A DNA stretch of 39,539 nucleotides, from assembly GCA_944364655.1 (NCBI GenBank), contig CALVWG010000036.1:1-39539 (forward strand), written 5' to 3'. Shown here in pieces: positions 1,926 through 39,402 of this stretch. How positions within the stretch are numbered: position 1 is the first letter of the stretch; each line of letters starts with the position of its first letter. Both the position numbers and the translations under genes were made by a program. This DNA is from an uncultured Bacilli bacterium (GTDB lineage Bacteria > Bacillota_I > Bacilli_A > RF39 > UBA660). Below the pieces are notes generated by a model, which worked only from the letters and a program-made list of their open reading frames with translations, made no database searches and was not told where the DNA came from.

Positions 1926-3179
1926 TTATTCTTCAATAATATTTATATCAGCACCAACTTGAGTAAGTTTTTCAATGATATGTTCATAACCTCTTAATAT
2001 ATGTTCTATACCACTTATTTTGGTTACACCATTAGCAATCAATCCCGCGATTATTAAAGAAGCTCCGGCTCGTAAATCACTTGCTACAACATCATTTCCA
2101 TAAAGAGGTGTCTTTCCTTTAATAAAAGCTATTTGATTTTTAGTTGTTATATCAGCTCCCATTGAATTTAAATACTTGATTTGCCCCATTCGATTATTGT
2201 ATATAGTTTCTTCTAAAATGCTTATTCCTTCACATTGAGTCATTAATGTTGTCATTGGTTGGGCTAAATCGGTTGGAAATCCGGGATAAATTAAAGTTGT
2301 AATATTAAAAGCTTTTAATTTTTCAGATTTATTAATTAATAAATTGTTGCCATTCACTTCAATTGAAGCTCCTATTTCATTTAGCTTGCTTAATAAAGCT
2401 GTAAGATGATCTTTAATTATATTTTTAATGAGTAGATTTTCTCCTAACAATGTTCCTAATATTATATAAGTTCCTGCTTCTATTCGATCAGGAATAACTT
2501 CTATAATTGCTTTATGTAAATAATTTACACCTTCAATTGTTATTTTACTTGTCCCAGCACCAGTTATTTTGGCTCCCATATTATTTAAAAAGGTCGCAAC
2601 ATTGACTATTTCTGGTTCTTTGGCAGCATTATTAATCGTAGTAATTCCTTTGGCTTTTACAGCCGCTAACATAACGTTAATTGTTGCTCCTACACTAGCA
2701 AAGTCAAAATATATTTTATTACCGATTAATTTGTCGGCTTTGATAATATATTTGTTATCTTCCAAAGTGATTGTTGCTCCTAAAGCTTTAAATCCTTTCA
2801 AATGATAATCTATTTTTCGATCACCAATTTTACAGCCACCAGGCAAGGATATTTCCACATATTTATCTTTTCCTAATAAAGCTCCCATAAAATAATAAGA
2901 TGCTCTTAATTTAGAAGATAAAGTCTCAGGTATATAAGTATTTTTAAATTTTTTTGTATTGATAGTAATCGTGTCATTTGAAGTTTTAACTTCAACATTT
3001 AAAGTTTCAATTATGTTAATTAAATTGTCTCGATCAGATATTTCAGGAACATTATAAATTTTAGTTTCTTCATCACATAAAATAGCGGCTGGTATTAAAG
3101 CAACAGCACTATTTTTAGCGCCAGAAATTGTTATAGTTCCTGTTAACTTTTTACCTCCATGAATTAATATTTTTTGCAT
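1926..3179 (-). CDS. murA: UDP-N-acetylglucosamine 1-carboxyvinyltransferase
   Basis: 417 aa. Carries ISGAKNSA near the N-terminus, an active-site-loop-like PGGCKIGDRKID, and GFPTDLQ-like PGFPTDLAQP. Confidence 0.95.
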   Translation of the reverse strand: MQKILIHGGKKLTGTITISGAKNSAVALIPAAILCDEETKIYNVPEISDRDNLINIIETLNVEVKTSNDTITINTKKFKNTYIPETLSSKLRASYYFMGALLGKDKYVEISLPGGCKIGDRKIDYHLKGFKALGATITLEDNKYIIKADKLIGNKIYFDFASVGATINVMLAAVKAKGITTINNAAKEPEIVNVATFLNNMGAKITGAGTSKITIEGVNYLHKAIIEVIPDRIEAGTYIILGTLLGENLLIKNIIKDHLTALLSKLNEIGASIEVNGNNLLINKSEKLKAFNITTLIYPGFPTDLAQPMTTLMTQCEGISILEETIYNNRMGQIKYLNSMGADITTKNQIAFIKGKTPLYGNDVVASDLRAGASLIIAGLIANGVTKISGIEHILRGYEHIIEKLTQVGADINIIEE

Positions 3180-3821: not shown

Positions 3822-4328
3822 TTATGAAATGTATTTATCAATTATTTCTTTTACGTAAAACTTATAATTTATATCATCATTATTTTCATTTTTACCTTCT
3901 AATAAACATAATGGTGGAAACATAACACACCACCAATTTTTTCCTATTCCATTTCCTAAAGTTATGACAAGGGAATTATAATTTCCTTCTGGATAAGTTA
4001 CTCCTTTGTACTCTTTTTCAGGAAAATAATTTAATCCTAAAGAAACAGTATAATTAGAAGTATAATTGTTAATAACTGCTTTGATGTTCTCTAAATTATT
4101 TTCAATTATTTTTTCAGCTTCTTGGCTATTTTTTACATTAGACAATTGGTTGGCAAGTTCCCGTTCAACTGCCTCTTTTATTTGAAATTTTAACTGTTGG
4201 TCATTTTCATTATCACTATTAGCAATTATTCTAAATCTAATTGCATCATTGGGAATTAAAATTTCTTTTTGATTAACAAAACCATATATTAAGAATAAAA
4301 CAAATAAAACAGGAATTATTTTCTTCAT
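3822..4328 (-). CDS. spoIIR: stage II sporulation protein R
   Basis: Signal peptide, then IRFRIIANSD..DQQLK and the NWWCVMFPPLC motif characteristic of SpoIIR. Confidence 0.85.
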   Translation of the reverse strand: MKKIIPVLFVLFLIYGFVNQKEILIPNDAIRFRIIANSDNENDQQLKFQIKEAVERELANQLSNVKNSQEAEKIIENNLENIKAVINNYTSNYTVSLGLNYFPEKEYKGVTYPEGNYNSLVITLGNGIGKNWWCVMFPPLCLLEGKNENNDDINYKFYVKEIIDKYIS

Positions 4329-8702: not shown

Positions 8703-8894
8703 AATTCACCTCTTTTTTCCGGAACATTATAGCATGAATAAGAAAGAAAAAAAAGAATAATTTTTGTTGGTTTTAAAGCAAATTAAAAATTATTTATATA
8801 ATTATTTTAAATAGTTTTAATGCTTATTTTTTAAATTAAATATTTTTTCTTATATTTTTTATTTTTTTACTCATAATAATTTTAGGTGTTTTTC

Positions 8895-10835
8895 ATGAAA
8901 AAATTTAAATTTATAAGTCGATTATTTTTGTTTTTTTTGTTAAGTGGCATTATATGTTTAACCGGTATTTATGTTTATGCTTTTTTCTCACCTAAATTGG
9001 AACTTAAAAATATGGGAAAAGTATTTATATATGATAATGAAAATAATTTAATATATCAAGGATCAGGTTCGAATGATTGGATAAGTTTAAATGATATATC
9101 TCAAAATTTAATAGACGCTGTGATTAGTGTTGAAGATAAAAATTTTTATAATCATCATGGATTTGATTTTTTAAGAATTGGCAAGTCATTAGTAACAAAT
9201 ATTAAAAATAATACTAGAATTGGTGCTTCTACAATTAGCCAACAATATATAAAAAATATGTTTTTAACTTTTGATCAAACATGGGCTAGAAAAATAGAAG
9301 AAGCTTTTTTAACAATTGAGTTAGAGGTACATTATAGTAAAGATGAAATTTTAGAAGGCTATTTAAATACTATAAATTATGGTGAAGGAAATTATGGAAT
9401 TGAAGATGCTAGTCATTATTATTTTAATAAAAGCAGTAAAGATTTGACTTTAGAAGAAGCTATAATGTTAGCCGGAATTCCTAAAAATCCTAGCAATTAT
9501 AATCCGGTTAGTGATTATGAAGCGTGTATTGAAAGAGCTAAGGTTGTAGCTTTAAGTATGCTAAAAAATAAATATATTACTGAAGAGGAATATAATGGTT
9601 TATTTCAAAAAGAAATTCCTATTTATGGCAAAAGAGAACAAAATAATTCACAGATGATATTGTATTATCAAGATGCTGTTTTAAACGAATTATCAAATAT
9701 TAAATCAATTCCAACTTCTTTAATTGAATCCGGTGGTTTAAAAATTTATACTACTTTTGATATGGATGCTCAGACTAAAATGGAAGAAAATATTTTAAAA
9801 TATATGGGTAATCAAGACGAATTACAAATTGCTAGTGTTATGATTAATCCAACAACAGGTGGTGTAATGGCTTTAACTGGTGGATTAAATTATGCAAAAA
9901 GTCAATATAACCGGGCTATTCAAAGTAAAAGACAAGTTGGTAGTACTATGAAACCTTTTTTGTATTACGCTGCTTTAGAAAATGGTCTTGTTGCATCATC
10001 AACATTTAAAAGTGAAAAAACAACTTTTTATTTTTCAAATAATCAAACTTATTCTCCAAATAACTATAATAATATTTATGCTAATGAAGAAATCACCATG
10101 GCAGCGGCTATCGCTTTTTCTGATAACGTTTATGCCGTTAAAACACATTTATTTTTAGGTTCTGATGTTTTGGTTGATACAGCTCATTTAGCGGGGATTA
10201 ATGAAGAATTAGTTGGAAATCCTTCCCTAGCGCTTGGAACTAGTGAATTAAATATGCTTGACTTTGCAAATGGTTACACTACTTTGGCAAACGGAGGAGA
10301 TCAAAAAGATTTATATTTTATCTCTAAAGTAGAAGATTTAAATGGAAATGTTTTATATGAACATAAAAATAAACATAATTATGTTTTGAATAGTAATAGT
10401 GTTTATATTCTAAATGAAATGTTAACAAGTACAACAAATTCAGCTTATAGTAGTTACACTACACCGACAGCATTGTCTTTAGCATCTAAAATGAGTAGAA
10501 AATATGCTTTAAAAACTGGTACAACTAATACGGATTCATGGGTGGCTGGTTATAATCCGGAACTTTTAATGATGGTTTGGATAGGTAATGATGACGCTAA
10601 AGAAATAGATTCTACTGCTAGTTATTATTCTAAAAACATTTGGCTTGATACAATGGAAAGTTATTTAAGTGGCCATGAACCAATATGGTATGAAAAGCCT
10701 CAAAATGTTATTGGGCTTATTAGAGATGGAATAACTGGTAAAGAAGATCCTGAAAGCAAAAATAGTACTGTTCTTTATTATGTAAAAGGAACTGAGCTTA
10801 ATATTGAATCTGTTAGCACAAATGAAAAAGAATGA
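8895..10835 (+). CDS. class A penicillin-binding protein (glycosyltransferase GT51 plus transpeptidase)
   Basis: EDKNFYNHHGFD and RIGASTISQQ (GT51), then STMKP (SxxK), SDN (SxN) and KTGTT. I prefer the ATG at 8895, behind AGGTG, over the GTG at 8886. Confidence 0.92.
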   Translation: MKKFKFISRLFLFFLLSGIICLTGIYVYAFFSPKLELKNMGKVFIYDNENNLIYQGSGSNDWISLNDISQNLIDAVISVEDKNFYNHHGFDFLRIGKSLVTNIKNNTRIGASTISQQYIKNMFLTFDQTWARKIEEAFLTIELEVHYSKDEILEGYLNTINYGEGNYGIEDASHYYFNKSSKDLTLEEAIMLAGIPKNPSNYNPVSDYEACIERAKVVALSMLKNKYITEEEYNGLFQKEIPIYGKREQNNSQMILYYQDAVLNELSNIKSIPTSLIESGGLKIYTTFDMDAQTKMEENILKYMGNQDELQIASVMINPTTGGVMALTGGLNYAKSQYNRAIQSKRQVGSTMKPFLYYAALENGLVASSTFKSEKTTFYFSNNQTYSPNNYNNIYANEEITMAAAIAFSDNVYAVKTHLFLGSDVLVDTAHLAGINEELVGNPSLALGTSELNMLDFANGYTTLANGGDQKDLYFISKVEDLNGNVLYEHKNKHNYVLNSNSVYILNEMLTSTTNSAYSSYTTPTALSLASKMSRKYALKTGTTNTDSWVAGYNPELLMMVWIGNDDAKEIDSTASYYSKNIWLDTMESYLSGHEPIWYEKPQNVIGLIRDGITGKEDPESKNSTVLYYVKGTELNIESVSTNEKE

Positions 10836-10853
10836 TTTTAATTAATCATTCTT
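10828..10853. terminator. hairpin spanning the convergent stop codons of the PBP gene and the Noc-like gene
   Basis: AAGAATGATT (10828-10837) / AATCATTCTT (10844-10853) with a 6-nt loop. The flanking A/T runs are weak. Confidence 0.4.
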
Positions 10854-12053
10854 TATATTTATAGTCATTTGGTAATTTCCATTTAAATCAATTTCATCTA
10901 AAGATATTTTAAATCCTTGTTTTTCCATTTTTCTTACCATATCTCTGACTTCATTAATAGCTGTTTTTAAATCTATTCCTTTAGATTGCTCAACTATTTG
11001 TTCATAATTTGGATCTAATTTTATAACAGAATCCATTGGATCAACAATCTCATTTTCTTTTGAATCTTTTACTTCCTCAATAACATTATTAATGGAAGGT
11101 TGTTGTTCATCAAAAAGAAATGGCATTACAGTTTCATTTTCAGAATTTTTAACTGATTCATTTTCATTTAAACTAGAATCATCAAGTACTTCTATATTAT
11201 CTAATGAAGAATTCTTATTATTTTCAGGATTTGCTTCACTCATACTCATATTAGCAGCTTCATCTTCTAAGAAATTAAAAAATTTATTTGGAATATTTTT
11301 AATTTCTTTTTTTGTTTCATTTATTTGATTTGTATCTTGTTCCATTGAATTAACCTCTCTAATAGTATTTTGTTTATTAATATCAGTTGCGTTATTAATC
11401 AATTTATTCATATCAGGATTTATATTTACTAATGGCACATCCTCAGTTTTTTCACCTTTAGCTTTTTTTATTTCCATATCTAATTGCCTAACAGTCATTC
11501 TTTTAGCAATTATTTTTTTTAACCATTCTGCTTGCTCTTCTTTAGGAAGTACTAATAAACTTCTAGCATGTCTCTCGCTAATTTTTTCTTGTAATAAAGC
11601 ATCTTGAACTTCAGGAGCTAAATTTAAAAGACGTAGTTTATTGGCAATAGAACTTTGACTTACTCCCATCTTTTCAGCTAATTGTTCTTGAGTCATATAT
11701 CCTCTATCTAATAGATTTTTATAAGATTTAGCTTCTTCAATTGGTGTTAAATTTCTTCTTTGAATATTTTCAACTAAAGCTATTTCAGCACTTTTATTAT
11801 CATCTATGTTTGAAATAATTGCAGGAACTTGACGAAGTCCAGCCATAGTTGCAGCTTTAAATCTTCTTTCACCCGCGATTATTTCAAATTTGTTTCCTAA
11901 TCTTCTTAAAACCAAAGGTTGAATTATACCATGTTGTTTAATTGATTCTGATAATTCTTTTAAACCATCTTCATCAAATGCTAATCTAGGTTGAAATCTA
12001 TTAGGAATAATATCTTCTATTGCCACTTGTAATACTTTTTGTTCTGTGTTCAC
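10842..12053 (-). CDS. noc: ParB/Noc-family CTP-dependent DNA-binding protein, Noc-like, with a long low-complexity insert
   Basis: IPNRFQPR, GERRFKAA (the CTP-binding GERR box), and the HTH/recognition region GVSQSSIANKLRLLNL..ISERHARSL. The C-terminal domain TAINEVRDMVRKMEKQGFKISLDEIDLNGNYQMTINI resembles Noc as I recall it. It starts at a GTG behind AAGGGG and lies immediately downstream of rsmG. Confidence 0.8.
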   Translation of the reverse strand: MNTEQKVLQVAIEDIIPNRFQPRLAFDEDGLKELSESIKQHGIIQPLVLRRLGNKFEIIAGERRFKAATMAGLRQVPAIISNIDDNKSAEIALVENIQRRNLTPIEEAKSYKNLLDRGYMTQEQLAEKMGVSQSSIANKLRLLNLAPEVQDALLQEKISERHARSLLVLPKEEQAEWLKKIIAKRMTVRQLDMEIKKAKGEKTEDVPLVNINPDMNKLINNATDINKQNTIREVNSMEQDTNQINETKKEIKNIPNKFFNFLEDEAANMSMSEANPENNKNSSLDNIEVLDDSSLNENESVKNSENETVMPFLFDEQQPSINNVIEEVKDSKENEIVDPMDSVIKLDPNYEQIVEQSKGIDLKTAINEVRDMVRKMEKQGFKISLDEIDLNGNYQMTINIKND

Positions 12054-12089
12054 AAAAATCAGCCCCTTAATGCCTATTTTCTATAATCT

Positions 12090-12162: not shown

Positions 12163-12192
12163 AACAAAAGAAGCTTATAGCTTCCCTTTTTT
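12163..12192. terminator. short hairpin terminator after rsmG
   Basis: GAAGCT (12170-12175) / AGCTTC (12179-12184) with a 3-nt loop. T-rich runs follow on both strands. Confidence 0.45.
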
Positions 12193-16213: not shown

Positions 16214-16241
16214 AAAAATTATTTCCCGGGAAATAATTTTT
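16214..16241. promoter_or_regulatory. Noc-binding-site (NBS) palindrome, embedded in a 28-bp perfect palindrome that probably also terminates jag
   Basis: AAAAATTATTTCCCGGGAAATAATTTTT. The core TATTTCCCGGGAAATA at 16220-16235 matches the published B. subtilis NBS consensus ATTTCCCGGGAAAT. Confidence 0.7.
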
Positions 16242-27582: not shown

Positions 27583-27598
27583 TGTTCCACGTGGAACA
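27583..27598. promoter_or_regulatory. parS site 1
   Basis: TGTTCCACGTGGAACA. The palindrome extends to 24 bp (27579-27602). Confidence 0.8.
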
Positions 27599-27621
27599 TA
27601 TAAAAAATGTTTATAACTTAA

Positions 27622-27637
27622 TGTTTCACGTGAAACA
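27622..27637. promoter_or_regulatory. parS site 2
   Basis: TGTTTCACGTGAAACA, a perfect 16-bp palindrome. Confidence 0.8.
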
Positions 27638-27749
27638 TATAAAATACGATTATATTAATATATAATAAATTAAATTATTTTTAAAATCATTTTATAAATC
27701 ATCAATTTTTACTAATCAAAGCATTTTTAAAAATTAAATGTTTATAACA

Positions 27750-27765
27750 ATGTTCCACGTGGAAC
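27750..27765. promoter_or_regulatory. parS site 3
   Basis: TGTTCCACGTGGAACA. Confidence 0.8.
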
Positions 27766-27896
27766 ATAAATAATCAAATTAGAAAATAATTTAATATAAT
27801 TTTAATATTAAATACTTATTTATTTTAAATTCTATATATTTTTTAAAATTATTTTTATTTTAGTTTATAAATAATAAATAATAAGTGGATAACCAA

Positions 27897-27912
27897 TGTT
27901 CCACGTGGAACA
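27897..27912. promoter_or_regulatory. parS site 4
   Basis: TGTTCCACGTGGAACA. The palindrome extends to 28 bp (27891-27918), and AGTGGATAAC lies immediately upstream. Confidence 0.8.
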
Positions 27913-28015
27913 TTGGTTTTTATATGTATAAAATTATATTGAATATTAAAGTAATAATTAAAAAAAAAATTATTTATAATATAATTTATAATAAATTTTT
28001 AAAAGTTAACAACTA

Positions 28016-28031
28016 TGTTTCACGTGAAACG
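28016..28031. promoter_or_regulatory. parS site 5 (one mismatch)
   Basis: TGTTTCACGTGAAACG. Confidence 0.7.
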
Positions 28032-28186
28032 TTAAGTTATTTAAAAAATATAATATTTTAGTTAATAAAATAAATAAGTATGTAATTTTCAAAAAAATAA
28101 AAAATTTTAATTGTAGTTTAATATTAAATTTTGAATTTTATTTAATATTTATTTAATATTTGGCTTTTTTATTAGTGGATAACTAA

Positions 28187-28202
28187 TGTTCCACGTGGAA
28201 CA
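28187..28202. promoter_or_regulatory. parS site 6
   Basis: TGTTCCACGTGGAACA, with AGTGGATAAC immediately upstream. Confidence 0.8.
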
Positions 28203-28318
28203 TATGTGATTAATAAATATAATTTATGAAAAGTGTACAATTAATTTTAAATTATAGTTAAAAAAGTTTAATATTGGATATTTTAAACATACATTTTTAT
28301 TATATGTTAATAAGTCTA

Positions 28319-28334
28319 TGTTTCACGTGAAACA
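28319..28334. promoter_or_regulatory. parS site 7
   Basis: TGTTTCACGTGAAACA. Confidence 0.8.
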
Positions 28335-28399
28335 TGTTGAAATAATTGTATTTTTTATTAAAAATTATAAATTGTTTTGATTATAACTAAAATTTTTAA

Positions 28400-28415
28400 T
28401 GTTCCACGTGGAACA
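28400..28415. promoter_or_regulatory. parS site 8
   Basis: TGTTCCACGTGGAACA. Confidence 0.8.
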
Positions 28416-28428
28416 TATGATTTTTTGG

Positions 28429-28457
28429 TTGCTTTTTCTTTAATATTTTGATATAAG
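28429..28457 (+). promoter_or_regulatory. candidate ffs promoter with an extended -10
   Basis: TTGCTT (28429-28434), a 17-nt spacer, then TG-a-TATAAG (28449-28457). This places the transcription start at about 28464. Confidence 0.55.
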
Positions 28458-28463
28458 TATTTT

Positions 28464-28540
28464 GTGCAACAAATAAATTGTAATCTGGTCAGGATCGGAA
28501 GATAGCAGCCACATCAATCCCTGTTTGTGTGCACTTTTTT
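28464..28540 (+). ncRNA. ffs: signal recognition particle RNA, short (4.5S-like) form
   Basis: CUGGUCAGGAUCGGAAGAUAGCAGCC matches the conserved domain IV (GGUCAGGUCCGGAAGGAAGCAGCC, GGAA tetraloop). The 5' GTGCAACAAA pairs with the 3' TTTGTGTGCAC and a T6 run follows. It sits in the usual ffs/tadA/dnaX neighbourhood. Confidence 0.8.
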
Positions 28541-28555
28541 ATTGGAGGAATTTAA

Positions 28556-30678: not shown

Positions 30679-30975
30679 ATGAATATGCAAAGTATAATGG
30701 CTCAAGCACAAAGAATGCAAAGAGATATTCAGAAAAAAAAGGATGAAATTAATGCAAAATTATTTCCCGGGAAATATGAATTTGTCGAAGTTACTTTAAA
30801 CGGTAAAAAGGAAATGGTACGTTGTAAAATAAATAAAGAAAGTTTAGATGCATCTGATATGGAGTTATTAGAAGACTTTATTGTATTAGCAACAAAAAAT
30901 GCAATTCAACAAATTGATCAAGAAATTCAAGCTAAAATGGGTCAATATGCTGGGATGTTAGATGGTTTGATGTAA
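30679..30975 (+). CDS. ybaB: YbaB/EbfC nucleoid-associated protein
   Basis: 98 aa beginning MQSIMAQAQRMQRDIQKKKDE, in the conserved dnaX-ybaB-recR context. Confidence 0.9.
   Translation: MNMQSIMAQAQRMQRDIQKKKDEINAKLFPGKYEFVEVTLNGKKEMVRCKINKESLDASDMELLEDFIVLATKNAIQQIDQEIQAKMGQYAGMLDGLM
30761..30776. promoter_or_regulatory. Noc-binding-site palindrome inside ybaB
   Basis: TATTTCCCGGGAAATA. The shared upstream flank AAAAT (30756-30760) matches the other two copies. Confidence 0.65.
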
Positions 30976-34112: not shown

Positions 34113-34803
34113 TTGGTTATTTGATTATCCAAATTTACAAGTTTATCAATATGCTGAAGGATTTAAATTTTCTTTAGATTCAATTTTATTGGCGGAGTTT
34201 GCTAAAATTAAAAAAAGCGATGAAAAAATAATTGATTTATGTACAGGTAATGCTGTTATTCCAATTATTTTAAATTTTAAATTTCATAAAAAAATAATTG
34301 GTGTTGAATTACAAAAAGAAATATTTGATTTAGCAAAAGATTCTGTTTCTATTAACCATATGGAAAAGGAAATAAATTTGTTAAATGAGAATGTTTTAAA
34401 TTTAGAAAATTATTTCCCGGGAAATAATTTTGATGTTGTTTTATCAAATCCGCCATATTTTAAGTATCATCATGAAAATTTTATAAACAAAAATTTAACA
34501 AAAAGCCTTGCTAGACATGAAATAACAATAAATTTGGAATCATTAATAAAAATTGCAAGTTATTTACTAAAAAGTAAAGGACGATTTTATCTAGTACATA
34601 TTCCTAGTAGAATAGATGAAATAATTGTTTTTGCGAAAAAATATAATTTTGGAATAAAAGAAATTCAATTTGTTCATTCTAAAATTGAAGAATCGCCAAT
34701 AATAGTTTTGATAACTTTAATTAAAGATGGAAAATTTGGAACAAAAGTTAAACCACCAATAAGTATTTTAAATTTAAATACTTATCAAGGTTTATTTGAA
34801 TAG
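34096..34803 (+). CDS. TrmN6/YabB-like SAM-dependent methyltransferase (tRNA m6A37-type)
   Basis: GFKFSLDSILLA, the SAM-binding IIDLCTGNAVI and NPPYF. It overlaps ricT by 17 nt. Confidence 0.8.
   Translation: MKKQINWLFDYPNLQVYQYAEGFKFSLDSILLAEFAKIKKSDEKIIDLCTGNAVIPIILNFKFHKKIIGVELQKEIFDLAKDSVSINHMEKEINLLNENVLNLENYFPGNNFDVVLSNPPYFKYHHENFINKNLTKSLARHEITINLESLIKIASYLLKSKGRFYLVHIPSRIDEIIVFAKKYNFGIKEIQFVHSKIEESPIIVLITLIKDGKFGTKVKPPISILNLNTYQGLFE
34411..34426. promoter_or_regulatory. Noc-binding-site palindrome inside the methyltransferase gene
   Basis: TATTTCCCGGGAAATA, within the 26-bp perfect palindrome AAAATTATTTCCCGGGAAATAATTTT (34406-34431). Confidence 0.65.
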
Positions 34804-38634: not shown

Positions 38635-39147
38635 TTGAAAGATACTGGTGTTATTAGAAAAATTGATGAGTTAGGAAGAATAGTTATTCCAAAAGAAATA
38701 AGAAGAAGTTTAGGAATTAGAGATGGTGAAAATTTAGAAATTTTTGTTAATAATAATGGAATTACTTTGCAAAAACATTCGAGACTAATTAATTATCAAG
38801 AACTAGCTAATCAATTGGCAAATTTAGCTTATGAAATGATGGATTATAAAATATTAATTTTTGATCGTGATGAAGTAATGGCTGCGTTTAAAAACGAATA
38901 TAAACATATATTAATAAATCAAAAATTACAAAAACTTTTAGAAAATAGAGAAAATTATGAATCTTTAAATAAAGAAATTATTTTAGATGAAATAGAGGCA
39001 TGTTATTATCTTATTTTACCAATTATTATTTCTACTGATGTTGTTGGTTTAATAGTGATGATTAATGATAAATTGTTTGTAAATGAACAAAGAAAATTTT
39101 TAAAATTTTTAAATAAGCTTTTAGTTAATAAAATTGATATATTATAA
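38635..39147 (+). CDS. spoVT: stage V sporulation protein T (AbrB-family SpoVT)
   Basis: The N-terminal swapped-hairpin domain KDTGVIRKIDELGRIVIPKEIRRSLGIRDGENLEIF plus a ~120-aa C-terminal GAF-like part. It has a TTG start and the conserved position after mfd. Confidence 0.85.
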   Translation: MKDTGVIRKIDELGRIVIPKEIRRSLGIRDGENLEIFVNNNGITLQKHSRLINYQELANQLANLAYEMMDYKILIFDRDEVMAAFKNEYKHILINQKLQKLLENRENYESLNKEIILDEIEACYYLILPIIISTDVVGLIVMINDKLFVNEQRKFLKFLNKLLVNKIDIL

Positions 39148-39192: not shown

Positions 39193-39202
39193 AAGTTTAA
39201 TC

Positions 39203-39402
39203 AATGATGAAAGAAAGAGTATATAATTAGTTTTTTTAAGAGAGTTTACGTTGGTGAAAGTAAATAAAAGCTTATTATAGAAGATGGCTCTGGAGTTAAA
39301 ACGTTTAAATCGCGTTAAGAAAAAAGAGCATGGAAACATGAATTAAGGTGGTACCGCGGATCTAACAGTTATTCGTCCTTTAGGATTGATAACTGTTTTT
39401 TA
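39203..39402 (+). promoter_or_regulatory. T-box riboswitch leader, AUG (Met) specifier
   Basis: Stem I start AATGATGAAAGAAAGAGTA, AGAGAG and GGTGAAAG distal elements, and a specifier loop GAAGAUGG with AUG at 39284-39286. The T-box sequence AATTAAGGTGGTACCGCG is at 39341-39358 and a terminator follows. Confidence 0.88.
39364..39402 (+). terminator. T-box terminator hairpin
   Basis: AACAGTTAT (39364-39372) / ATAACTGTT (39389-39397) followed by a T-run. Its 5' arm can alternatively pair in the antiterminator. Confidence 0.8.

Follow-up and report, generated by a model that had tools for sequence, protein, structure and literature searches.

A Noc-type protein subfamily of uncultured gut Bacilli that lacks the N-terminal helix and carries a Noc-helix-like motif in a disordered linker

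We analyzed a ParB-family gene in a 39,539-nucleotide stretch of DNA (referred to here as the window; contig CALVWG010000036.1 of assembly GCA_944364655.1) from an uncultured Bacilli bacterium of the GTDB lineage Bacillota_I; Bacilli_A; RF39; UBA660. The gene lies at 10842-12053 on the minus strand and, read as an open reading frame (ORF) with a GTG start codon, encodes a protein of 403 amino acids. This protein belongs to a large, coherent and uncharacterised subfamily in uncultured low-GC gut Bacilli (Candidatus Ventrenecus and relatives), whose traits are the absence of an N-terminal helix, a long disordered insert before the C-terminal domain and, as it appears, the Noc membrane motif inside this insert. 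The explanation that we favor as a whole, to which we give a probability of roughly 0.6, is that a member of a Noc-type subfamily uses a motif in its linker as a tether, while a separate ParB acts on an array of parS sites in the same chromosome region. A sequence-only reading of the same DNA had left two options, an ordinary Noc with a Spo0J encoded elsewhere or a single protein of dual specificity. The first of these is close to the truth, but the protein is no ordinary Noc.

Results

The assignment of the gene as Noc-type and not Spo0J-type, which the sequence-only reading had already made, is supported by the specificity residues, the C-terminal domain, the synteny with rsmG and, less firmly, the position of the protein in a tree. 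The protein consists of a ParB N-terminal domain that binds cytidine triphosphate (CTP) at residues 6-98 (11760-12038; Pfam ParB_N, E = 7e-33), a ParB helix-turn-helix (HTH) DNA-binding domain at residues 101-199 (11457-11753; Pfam HTH_ParB, E = 2e-33), a linker at residues 200-349 (11007-11456) and a Noc-type C-terminal domain at residues 350-403 (10845-11006), all on the minus strand. The residues of PNRFQPR, GERR and ENxQR were invariant in an alignment of 88 diverse relatives, which were 44-84% identical. Structure prediction with AlphaFold2 (AF2), using this alignment, was confident for residues 1-200 and 350-403, with the confidence score pLDDT above 90 over most of the N-terminal domain, and left residues from about 225 to 349 disordered. 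The C-terminal domain, also with a pLDDT above 90, was modeled as a short helix (350-357), a longer helix (362-378) and a beta hairpin (383-400).

Among the NCBIfam models, nucleoid_noc (TIGR04285) was the top match (E = 1.6e-83), and the last 68 residues of the protein matched this model only, at its C-terminal end (positions 210-254). A hidden Markov model (HMM) of the C-terminal 62 residues, made with 116 Bacillaceae Noc proteins, matched residues 361-401 of the window protein, all eight relatives tested and one clostridial Noc-like protein, and the Spo0J control remained unmatched. In a search of the PDB the top match was Noc of G. thermoleovorans, with no more than 196 bits to any solved canonical Noc chain. 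In a neighbour-joining (NJ) tree of 183 columns, the window protein and its relatives were monophyletic (94% bootstrap), and this clade was placed as sister to the Bacillaceae Nocs together with clostridial Noc-like proteins. The gene stands directly after rsmG in the window and in all related loci examined.

It could be argued that the protein is instead a diverged Spo0J orthologue, that its Noc-like features are convergent and that the true noc was lost. Over the N-terminal and DNA-binding domains, identity was 54% to G. thermoleovorans Noc and 47% to B. subtilis Noc, the latter being near the 46% found for the Spo0J proteins of B. subtilis, Thermus and clostridia, and Thermus Spo0J outscored B. 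subtilis Noc in the PDB search. Against such an origin stand the position of the gene where noc is expected, directly after rsmG, the Noc-type C-terminal domain, the Q..R signature and the Noc-helix-like motif described below, and the grouping of the protein with Noc-type proteins in the tree; we consider it extremely improbable.

The motifs that the sequence-only reading had quoted from the protein were all found (IIPNRFQPR at residues 15-23, GVSQSSIANKLRLLNL at 130-145, ISERHARSL at 158-166 and TAINEVRDMV...YQMTINI at 364-400), and the recognition sequences that it had given for B. subtilis Noc and Spo0J were correct when compared with PDB 7ol9 and 6sdk. For the C-terminal string that it had given for B. 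subtilis Noc, a closely similar sequence was found in G. thermoleovorans Noc (P0271).

The extent of the subfamily was analyzed in a search of 1.84 billion representatives of clusters at 50% identity. The best 150 matches all had the architecture of the subfamily, and all scored at least 258 bits against the window protein, compared with the maximum of 196 bits for canonical Noc in the separate PDB search. Nearly all of these 150 representatives start 14-21 residues ahead of PNRFQPR. Their lengths were mostly 340-850 amino acids, and six short entries (227-263 amino acids) are probably fragments. Among the matches listed, all came from uncultured metagenome-assembled genomes or metagenomes, and the few with a source name were annotated only as 'ParB/RepB/Spo0J family'. 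Related loci were also taken from GTDB, one genome per species and ±10 kb each, which gave 42 loci labelled 'uncultured Bacilli', 'Tenericutes', 'Mollicutes' or Candidatus Ventrenecus, a few of them evidently mislabelled. The isolate names of these loci point to samples of chicken, rabbit and mouse-gut catalogues.

The coding sequence runs from the GTG at 12053-12051 to a stop codon at 10844-10842, and a ribosome-binding site, AAGGGG, is found 9 nt 5' of the GTG (12063-12068). An earlier start is impossible because an in-frame TAG (12081-12083, read from 12083) shuts the frame 5' of the start codon. Only 16 residues stand ahead of P17, the proline of PNRFQPR, and there is therefore no room for an N-terminal helix; the same stretch has 14-20 residues in the 88 relatives. 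The sequence-only reading had described the limits of the ORF, the blocking TAG, the lack of room for a membrane helix and a gap of 6 nt to a convergent penicillin-binding protein (PBP) gene, and our analysis agreed with it on each. Three gene calls among the relatives (P0022, P0055 and P0111) carry N-terminal extensions of 16-21 amino acids ('..KIGxKGLI[LF]V'), which we considered as a hidden helix and rejected. They are probably mis-called starts, because the homologous DNA of the window (12054-12083) contains the ribosome-binding site and the TAG.

Among the relatives, the length of the linker ranges from some 100 to over 600 residues, and its composition shifts too. Its strongest conserved island is N256-K-F-F-N-F-L-E-D-E265..N268-M269, and we refer to the motif PNKFFNFLEDEA (residues 255-266; 11256-11291 on the minus strand) as the FF motif. 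F258 was conserved in 71, F259 in 70 and N260 in 70 of the 88 relatives. It was reported for B. subtilis Noc that an N-terminal amphipathic membrane-targeting helix (residues 1-10 to 1-15) is essential to function, and that F5, F8 and F9 of this helix are required for membrane binding and function (Adams et al. 2015, PMC4331003). The N-terminus of canonical Noc reads MKHSFSRFFGLGEKE in B. subtilis and MKHPFSRLFSFGEKE in G. thermoleovorans, and natural N-termini among 120 Bacillaceae Nocs include MKHPFSRFFNFGEKE.

We compared the linker motif with these N-termini by position-specific scoring matrices (PSSMs) in both directions. The family PSSM, made from residues 255-266, had its top score of 10.5 bits on B. 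subtilis and G. thermoleovorans Noc at residue 5 (FSRFFGLGEKEQ and FSRLFSFGEKEQ, respectively), and the next-best positions in the two proteins scored -2.6 and -8.1 bits. As a null, 6 of 723,446 positions in unrelated ORFs reached 10.5 bits. The reverse PSSM, made from 37 distinct canonical N-termini, peaked at residue 254 of the window protein (null fraction 3e-4), and it rose above the 99.99th null percentile in 31 of the 150 family representatives, at an internal position in 30 of these 31. The hydrophobic moment over 11 residues was 0.59 for IPNKFFNFLED versus 0.43 for residues 1-11 of B. subtilis Noc. These results show that NKFFNFLEDE, which the sequence-only reading had overlooked, and the membrane-targeting helix of canonical Noc (FSRFFNFGEKE) are each other's best match. 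Because of this reciprocal resemblance, we propose that the membrane-targeting sequence has been displaced into the linker and is not absent. When clostridial Noc-like proteins were scanned with the family PSSM, the FF motif was found nowhere (best score, -0.1).

Three further islands are present in the linker, IEVLDD (residues 287-292), MPFLF (310-314) and DPMDSVIKLDPNY (338-350), at about 11004-11194. The spacing from the FF motif to IEVLDD is loosely like the helix-spacer-first-strand layout of the canonical Noc N-terminus. A derivation of the linker from a tandemly duplicated noc, with helix, spacer and first beta strand, gave insignificant results with HMMER and stays speculation.

The DNA specificity of ParB-family proteins has been traced to four residues. 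According to Jalal et al. (2020), Q173 contacts adenine 1 and R201 contacts cytosine 6 of the Noc-binding site (NBS), and NBS binding by Q173/R201 requires a permissive lysine at position 179, 184 or both (PMC7383237). Their scan of 160,000 variants showed that R173 is invariant among the parS binders, that position 184 tolerates any residue there and that dual-specificity variants mostly have T or S at 201 (PMC7383237). In the window protein, these positions are Q133, K139, N144 and R161, within the recognition segment (11571-11657 on the minus strand). A common alignment showed R..G at 173/201 in 13 of 13 reference ParB/Spo0J proteins and Q..R in every Noc or Noc-like protein, and the window protein reads Q-K-N-R. 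Among the 88 relatives, Q was conserved in 86, K in 86 and R in 87, and the third position (184) was occupied by N (70 relatives), S (9), T (6), A (2) or G (1), but by K or R in none; the complete Q-K-N-R signature was common to 70 of the 88.

The four positions and the conversion from RTAG to QKKR that the sequence-only reading had named match the publication. It had also taken the signature for a hybrid or dual-specificity one, and this part is unsupported, as the published rule for Noc fits the protein, the signature is widespread in the relatives and the sites in the lineage are bimodal. Since Q173 and R201 with one lysine at 179 or 184 suffice, Q-K-N-R is a Noc-type signature and not an intermediate. 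Asparagine at 184 is the norm of the subfamily, at a position that is permissive rather than specificity-determining, which corrects an over-reading of the four-residue code. The Q-K-x-R of the window protein agrees with the NBS-preferring class of the engineered Caulobacter ParB 'PtoN' and scan variants, which has Q173 and R201 with K or R at 179 or 184 (PMC7383237). The exact Q-K-N-R variant was not found in those parts of the text and supplement files of Jalal et al. (2020) that were available (PMC7383237). Judged from its sequence, the protein is very probably a Noc-type NBS binder.

Sites for both kinds of protein are present in the window, three perfect NBS and eight parS, as the sequence-only reading had counted them, and both counts are far over the shuffled expectation. 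The first NBS, TATTTCCCGGGAAATA with flanking bases, is intergenic between jag and mnmE (16221-16234), the second lies within ybaB (30762-30775) and the third within a methyltransferase gene (34412-34425). Three perfect NBS 14-mers were thus observed, versus 0.22 in shuffles even with two mismatches allowed. The eight parS (seven perfect and one with a single mismatch; 0.04 expected) form an array at 27583-28415, in a non-coding gap of 886 nt from the end of gyrA (27565) to the gene for the signal recognition particle (SRP) RNA (28452-28550; small SRP RNA in Rfam). Two copies of GTGGATAAC (27885-27893 and 28175-28183), which match a reverse-strand DnaA box at 8 of 9 positions, lie directly 5' of two of the parS and belong to a repeated unit, AGTGGATAAC[CT]AATGTTCCACGTGGAACAT.

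The array is found at the same place in relatives. Three parS stand directly after gyrA in locus L041 (21432-21590), and in 14 low-GC metagenome loci the stretch between gyrA and tadA-dnaX contains 2-8 parS; in 5 of the 14 the contig breaks off, and only one flanking gene is visible. These metagenome loci were chosen for paired parS and so contain arrays by construction; the constant position of the arrays does not follow from that choice. Relatives with parS arrays include L058, L071, L075, L086, L108, L117, L122, L136, L143, L151 and L154, and in four of them (L136, L143, L151 and L154) a perfect 16-bp NBS is found inside the array. Another low-GC lineage, whose gyrA is more distant, is represented by L127 (2802-4256) and L160 (10993-12447) and has 11 parS in about 1.45 kb beside gyrA. 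We counted the sites in the window, the 42 GTDB loci and 16 low-GC metagenome loci (the 14 of the lineage plus L127 and L160), about 0.84 Mb in all, and found 95 pure parS, 20 pure NBS and 2 half-hybrids off by one base. The 20 perfect NBS (3 in the window and 17 in other loci) compare with about 0.002 expected.

A six-frame phmmer search with clostridial Soj, Spo0J and Noc-like queries revealed neither a second ParB nor a Soj/ParA in the 39.5-kb window. Each of the 42 related species loci had one ParB-family gene and no Soj. The absence of soj-spo0J from the canonical locus, which the sequence-only reading had noted in the window, therefore extends to 42 of 42 related loci. Likewise, when 120 metagenome loci with paired parS were scanned, no locus of the lineage had a second ParB or a Soj. 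Several candidates were rejected: L176, with a low-GC Spo0J followed by parS, is a Clostridium locus (spo0J-DUF4446-yyaC, 58% identical to Spo0J of C. massiliamazoniense); L138, L116 and L078 are Bacteroidota; and a Soj-sized ORF of 253 amino acids between noc and dnaA in L041 is a short-chain dehydrogenase by inspection, and phmmer with Soj found nothing in L041. The loss of soj-spo0J from the locus has a precedent, since Garcia et al. (2021) describe how the cluster was broken up with loss of parA in Streptococcaceae (PMC8136486); their text contains nothing specific on Noc or ParB of the present lineage.

Two sharp and strongly maintained classes of sites argue for two readers. With Q and R fixed in the Noc-type protein, one would expect parS to be read by a canonical R..G ParB whose gene lies elsewhere, and the parS array is not a predicted target of the Noc-type protein. 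The sequences make a separate ParB for the array quite probable; it would have R173/G201 and be encoded outside the window, probably without a neighboring Soj. A separate Spo0J elsewhere is accordingly the likelier of the two options of the sequence-only reading. The other option, that this is the single ParB-family protein of the genome and serves NBS and parS alike as a dual-specificity or intermediate protein, is highly unlikely. It would account for the lack of a second ParB or Soj in the window, in the 42 loci and beside the parS arrays of the lineage, for the NBS found inside the array of four relatives and for a position 184 that is never Lys or Arg. However, the examined loci are a few percent of each genome. 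Moreover, the parS binders of the published scan all had R173 and its dual variants mostly T or S at 201, whereas Q and R are fixed here, and one relaxed reader would not keep two sharp site classes with essentially no intermediates. The protein also lacks the ParA-activating N-terminal peptide and has a Noc-type C-terminal domain.

The window is a typical origin region of Bacilli, with a G+C content of 25.5%. The gene order is rnpA-yidC-jag-mnmE-mnmG-rsmG-noc on one strand and dnaA-dnaN-comK-recF-gyrB-gyrA on the other. The upstream neighbor of the Noc-type gene is rsmG (PF02527; 12223-12924). A palindromic GC-containing hairpin with T-rich tails (12170-12184), read from the sequence between the two genes, is probably the terminator of rsmG, which would leave the Noc-type gene with its own promoter region. 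On the other side lies the convergent gene for a class A PBP (8886-10835; Pfam Transgly and Transpeptidase), whose end is 6 nt away from the stop codon of the Noc-type gene (10842). The comK gene (PF06338; 21547-22029) is located between dnaN and recF, an arrangement kept across the lineage (L033, L039, L041 and L026). Pfam also identified spoIIR (3822-4328) and spoVT (SpoVT_C; 38635-39147), a murA-like gene (1926-3179) was assigned by inspection of the sequence, and the right edge of the window contains a T-box leader according to Rfam (39198-39383). The lineage looks walled and is probably spore-forming too; public records call some of the relatives 'Tenericutes' or 'Mollicutes'.

Discussion

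We propose that the Noc-type protein would nucleate at NBS sites, undergo CTP-dependent clamp closure and then spread along the DNA, and that it would link this DNA with the membrane. In place of an N-terminal helix, the FF motif of the disordered linker (NKFFNFLEDE), which is conserved and amphipathic, would serve as the tether, and the parS array beside gyrA would be served by a separate canonical (R173/G201) ParB. In the apo form of canonical Noc, the helix is packed against the N-terminal domain, and CTP-induced engagement probably frees it (PMC8429893). This kind of gating would not be possible for an anchor located beyond the DNA-binding domain. The role of the FF motif as a membrane anchor, which its sequence suggests, is a reasonable but tentative part of this proposal.

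A number of observations weigh against the proposal as a whole. The clade that joins all Q..R proteins had an NJ bootstrap of only 53%, and identity over the N-terminal and DNA-binding domains barely splits Noc (47-54%) from Spo0J (46%). With TIGR04285 the window protein scored 280 bits, which is under the NCBI cut-off of 315; the match is broken in two by the long insert, and the name that NCBI gives to a relative is accordingly no more than 'ParB/RepB/Spo0J family partition protein'. The 42 and 14 loci of the lineage, each of at most about 21 kb and thus a few percent of a genome, showed no second ParB. As for the tether, AF2 did not fold the linker motif as a helix (pLDDT about 50), and the motif has one basic residue only and acidic residues after it. 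A HMMER comparison of the first 60 residues of canonical Noc with the linkers picked the right start residue but was insignificant (E = 0.03-2), and a recognisable motif was missing in many of the 150 distant representatives.

Some of these observations would also be expected if the protein is an NBS binder whose FF motif makes no direct contact with the membrane but is a docking peptide for a partner in the divisome, replication or segregation, or for its own N-terminal domain. The disorder predicted by AF2 and the single Lys and acidic C-terminal side of the motif would fit this, as would the clostridial Noc-like proteins that reach TIGR04285 without an N-terminal helix or the motif and that must therefore function with no membrane contact of their own. 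In addition, the helix of apo-Noc packs on residues of the N-terminal domain (PMC8429893) that are mostly conserved here (I44, Q45, I59, R64 and Q98), and the islands IEVLDD, MPFLF and DPMDSVIKLDPNY likewise resemble binding motifs. On the other hand, the motif is reciprocally best-matched to a sequence proven to bind the membrane (PMC4331003), its hydrophobic moment is no lower than that of B. subtilis Noc, and the three membrane-binding phenylalanines of B. subtilis Noc have aromatic or hydrophobic counterparts in it. We consider the docking peptide rather unlikely and prefer the linker motif as a tether.

The protein shares several properties with Noc of B. subtilis and G. thermoleovorans (PDB 7ol9, 7nfu, 7ng0 and 6y93; TIGR04285): the gene follows rsmG, the ParB_N and HTH domains are present with intact CTP-binding motifs, Q173, K179 and R201 are the same, the C-terminal domain is of the same type and an identical 16-bp NBS occurs in the genome. 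Unlike Bacillus-type Noc, it has no N-terminal amphipathic helix or alpha2, which excludes an autoinhibition gated by CTP in the manner described for G. thermoleovorans Noc. It also has N and not K at 184, belongs to a clade of its own and carries a disordered insert of about 150 amino acids (up to about 600 in relatives) before the C-terminal domain, with the helix-like motif inside. In short, the features of Bacillus-type Noc that it lacks are the N-terminal helix and a score at the TIGR04285 cut-off.

The clostridial Noc-like paralogues of rsmG-noc-soj-spo0J clusters (for example in Clostridium massiliamazoniense, L045) resemble the window protein in their short N-terminus without a helix, the Q..R residues, the Noc-type C-terminus and about 50% identity. 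They differ in that they are about 260-290 amino acids long, have no long linker or FF motif, have K at 184 and are encoded beside soj-spo0J; in the same scan, clostridial loci showed the classical trio of noc-like, soj and spo0J genes. In L045, the Noc-like protein reads Q-K-K-R at the four positions and reaches the TIGR04285 cut-off with 316 bits. Therefore, helix-less proteins that the NCBI model names Noc are not rare outside Bacillales.

With Spo0J/ParB (B. subtilis 6sdk, T. thermophilus 1vz0 and C. crescentus 6t1f), the protein shares the fold, membership in the CTP-clamp family and about 39-46% identity, and parS, the type of site that these proteins bind, is present in the same window. 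Spo0J/ParB proteins differ in having R173/G201, another C-terminal domain and, usually, an adjacent soj. Their N-terminal extension of 36-53 amino acids, taken from full-length references derived from loci because the PDB chains are truncated, contains a ParA-activating peptide that the window protein lacks.

To our knowledge, the N-terminal helix of Noc has been treated as a defining and universally conserved feature. Our analysis shows that Noc-type proteins also exist with a helix-like motif that is internal, on a flexible tether, and that clostridial ones exist without any such motif. We suggest, with some reserve, that this is an unstudied Noc subfamily in which the membrane-targeting sequence may have moved from the N-terminus into the linker between the DNA-binding and dimerisation domains. 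If this is true, the tether would be freed from the CTP-dependent N-terminal autoinhibition of canonical Noc. The parS sites are gathered in one array beside gyrA, sometimes with an embedded NBS, so that Noc and ParB may be loaded next to each other in the origin region. The subfamily would offer a natural way to ask if nucleoid occlusion depends on where the anchor is placed and on its N-terminal autoinhibition.

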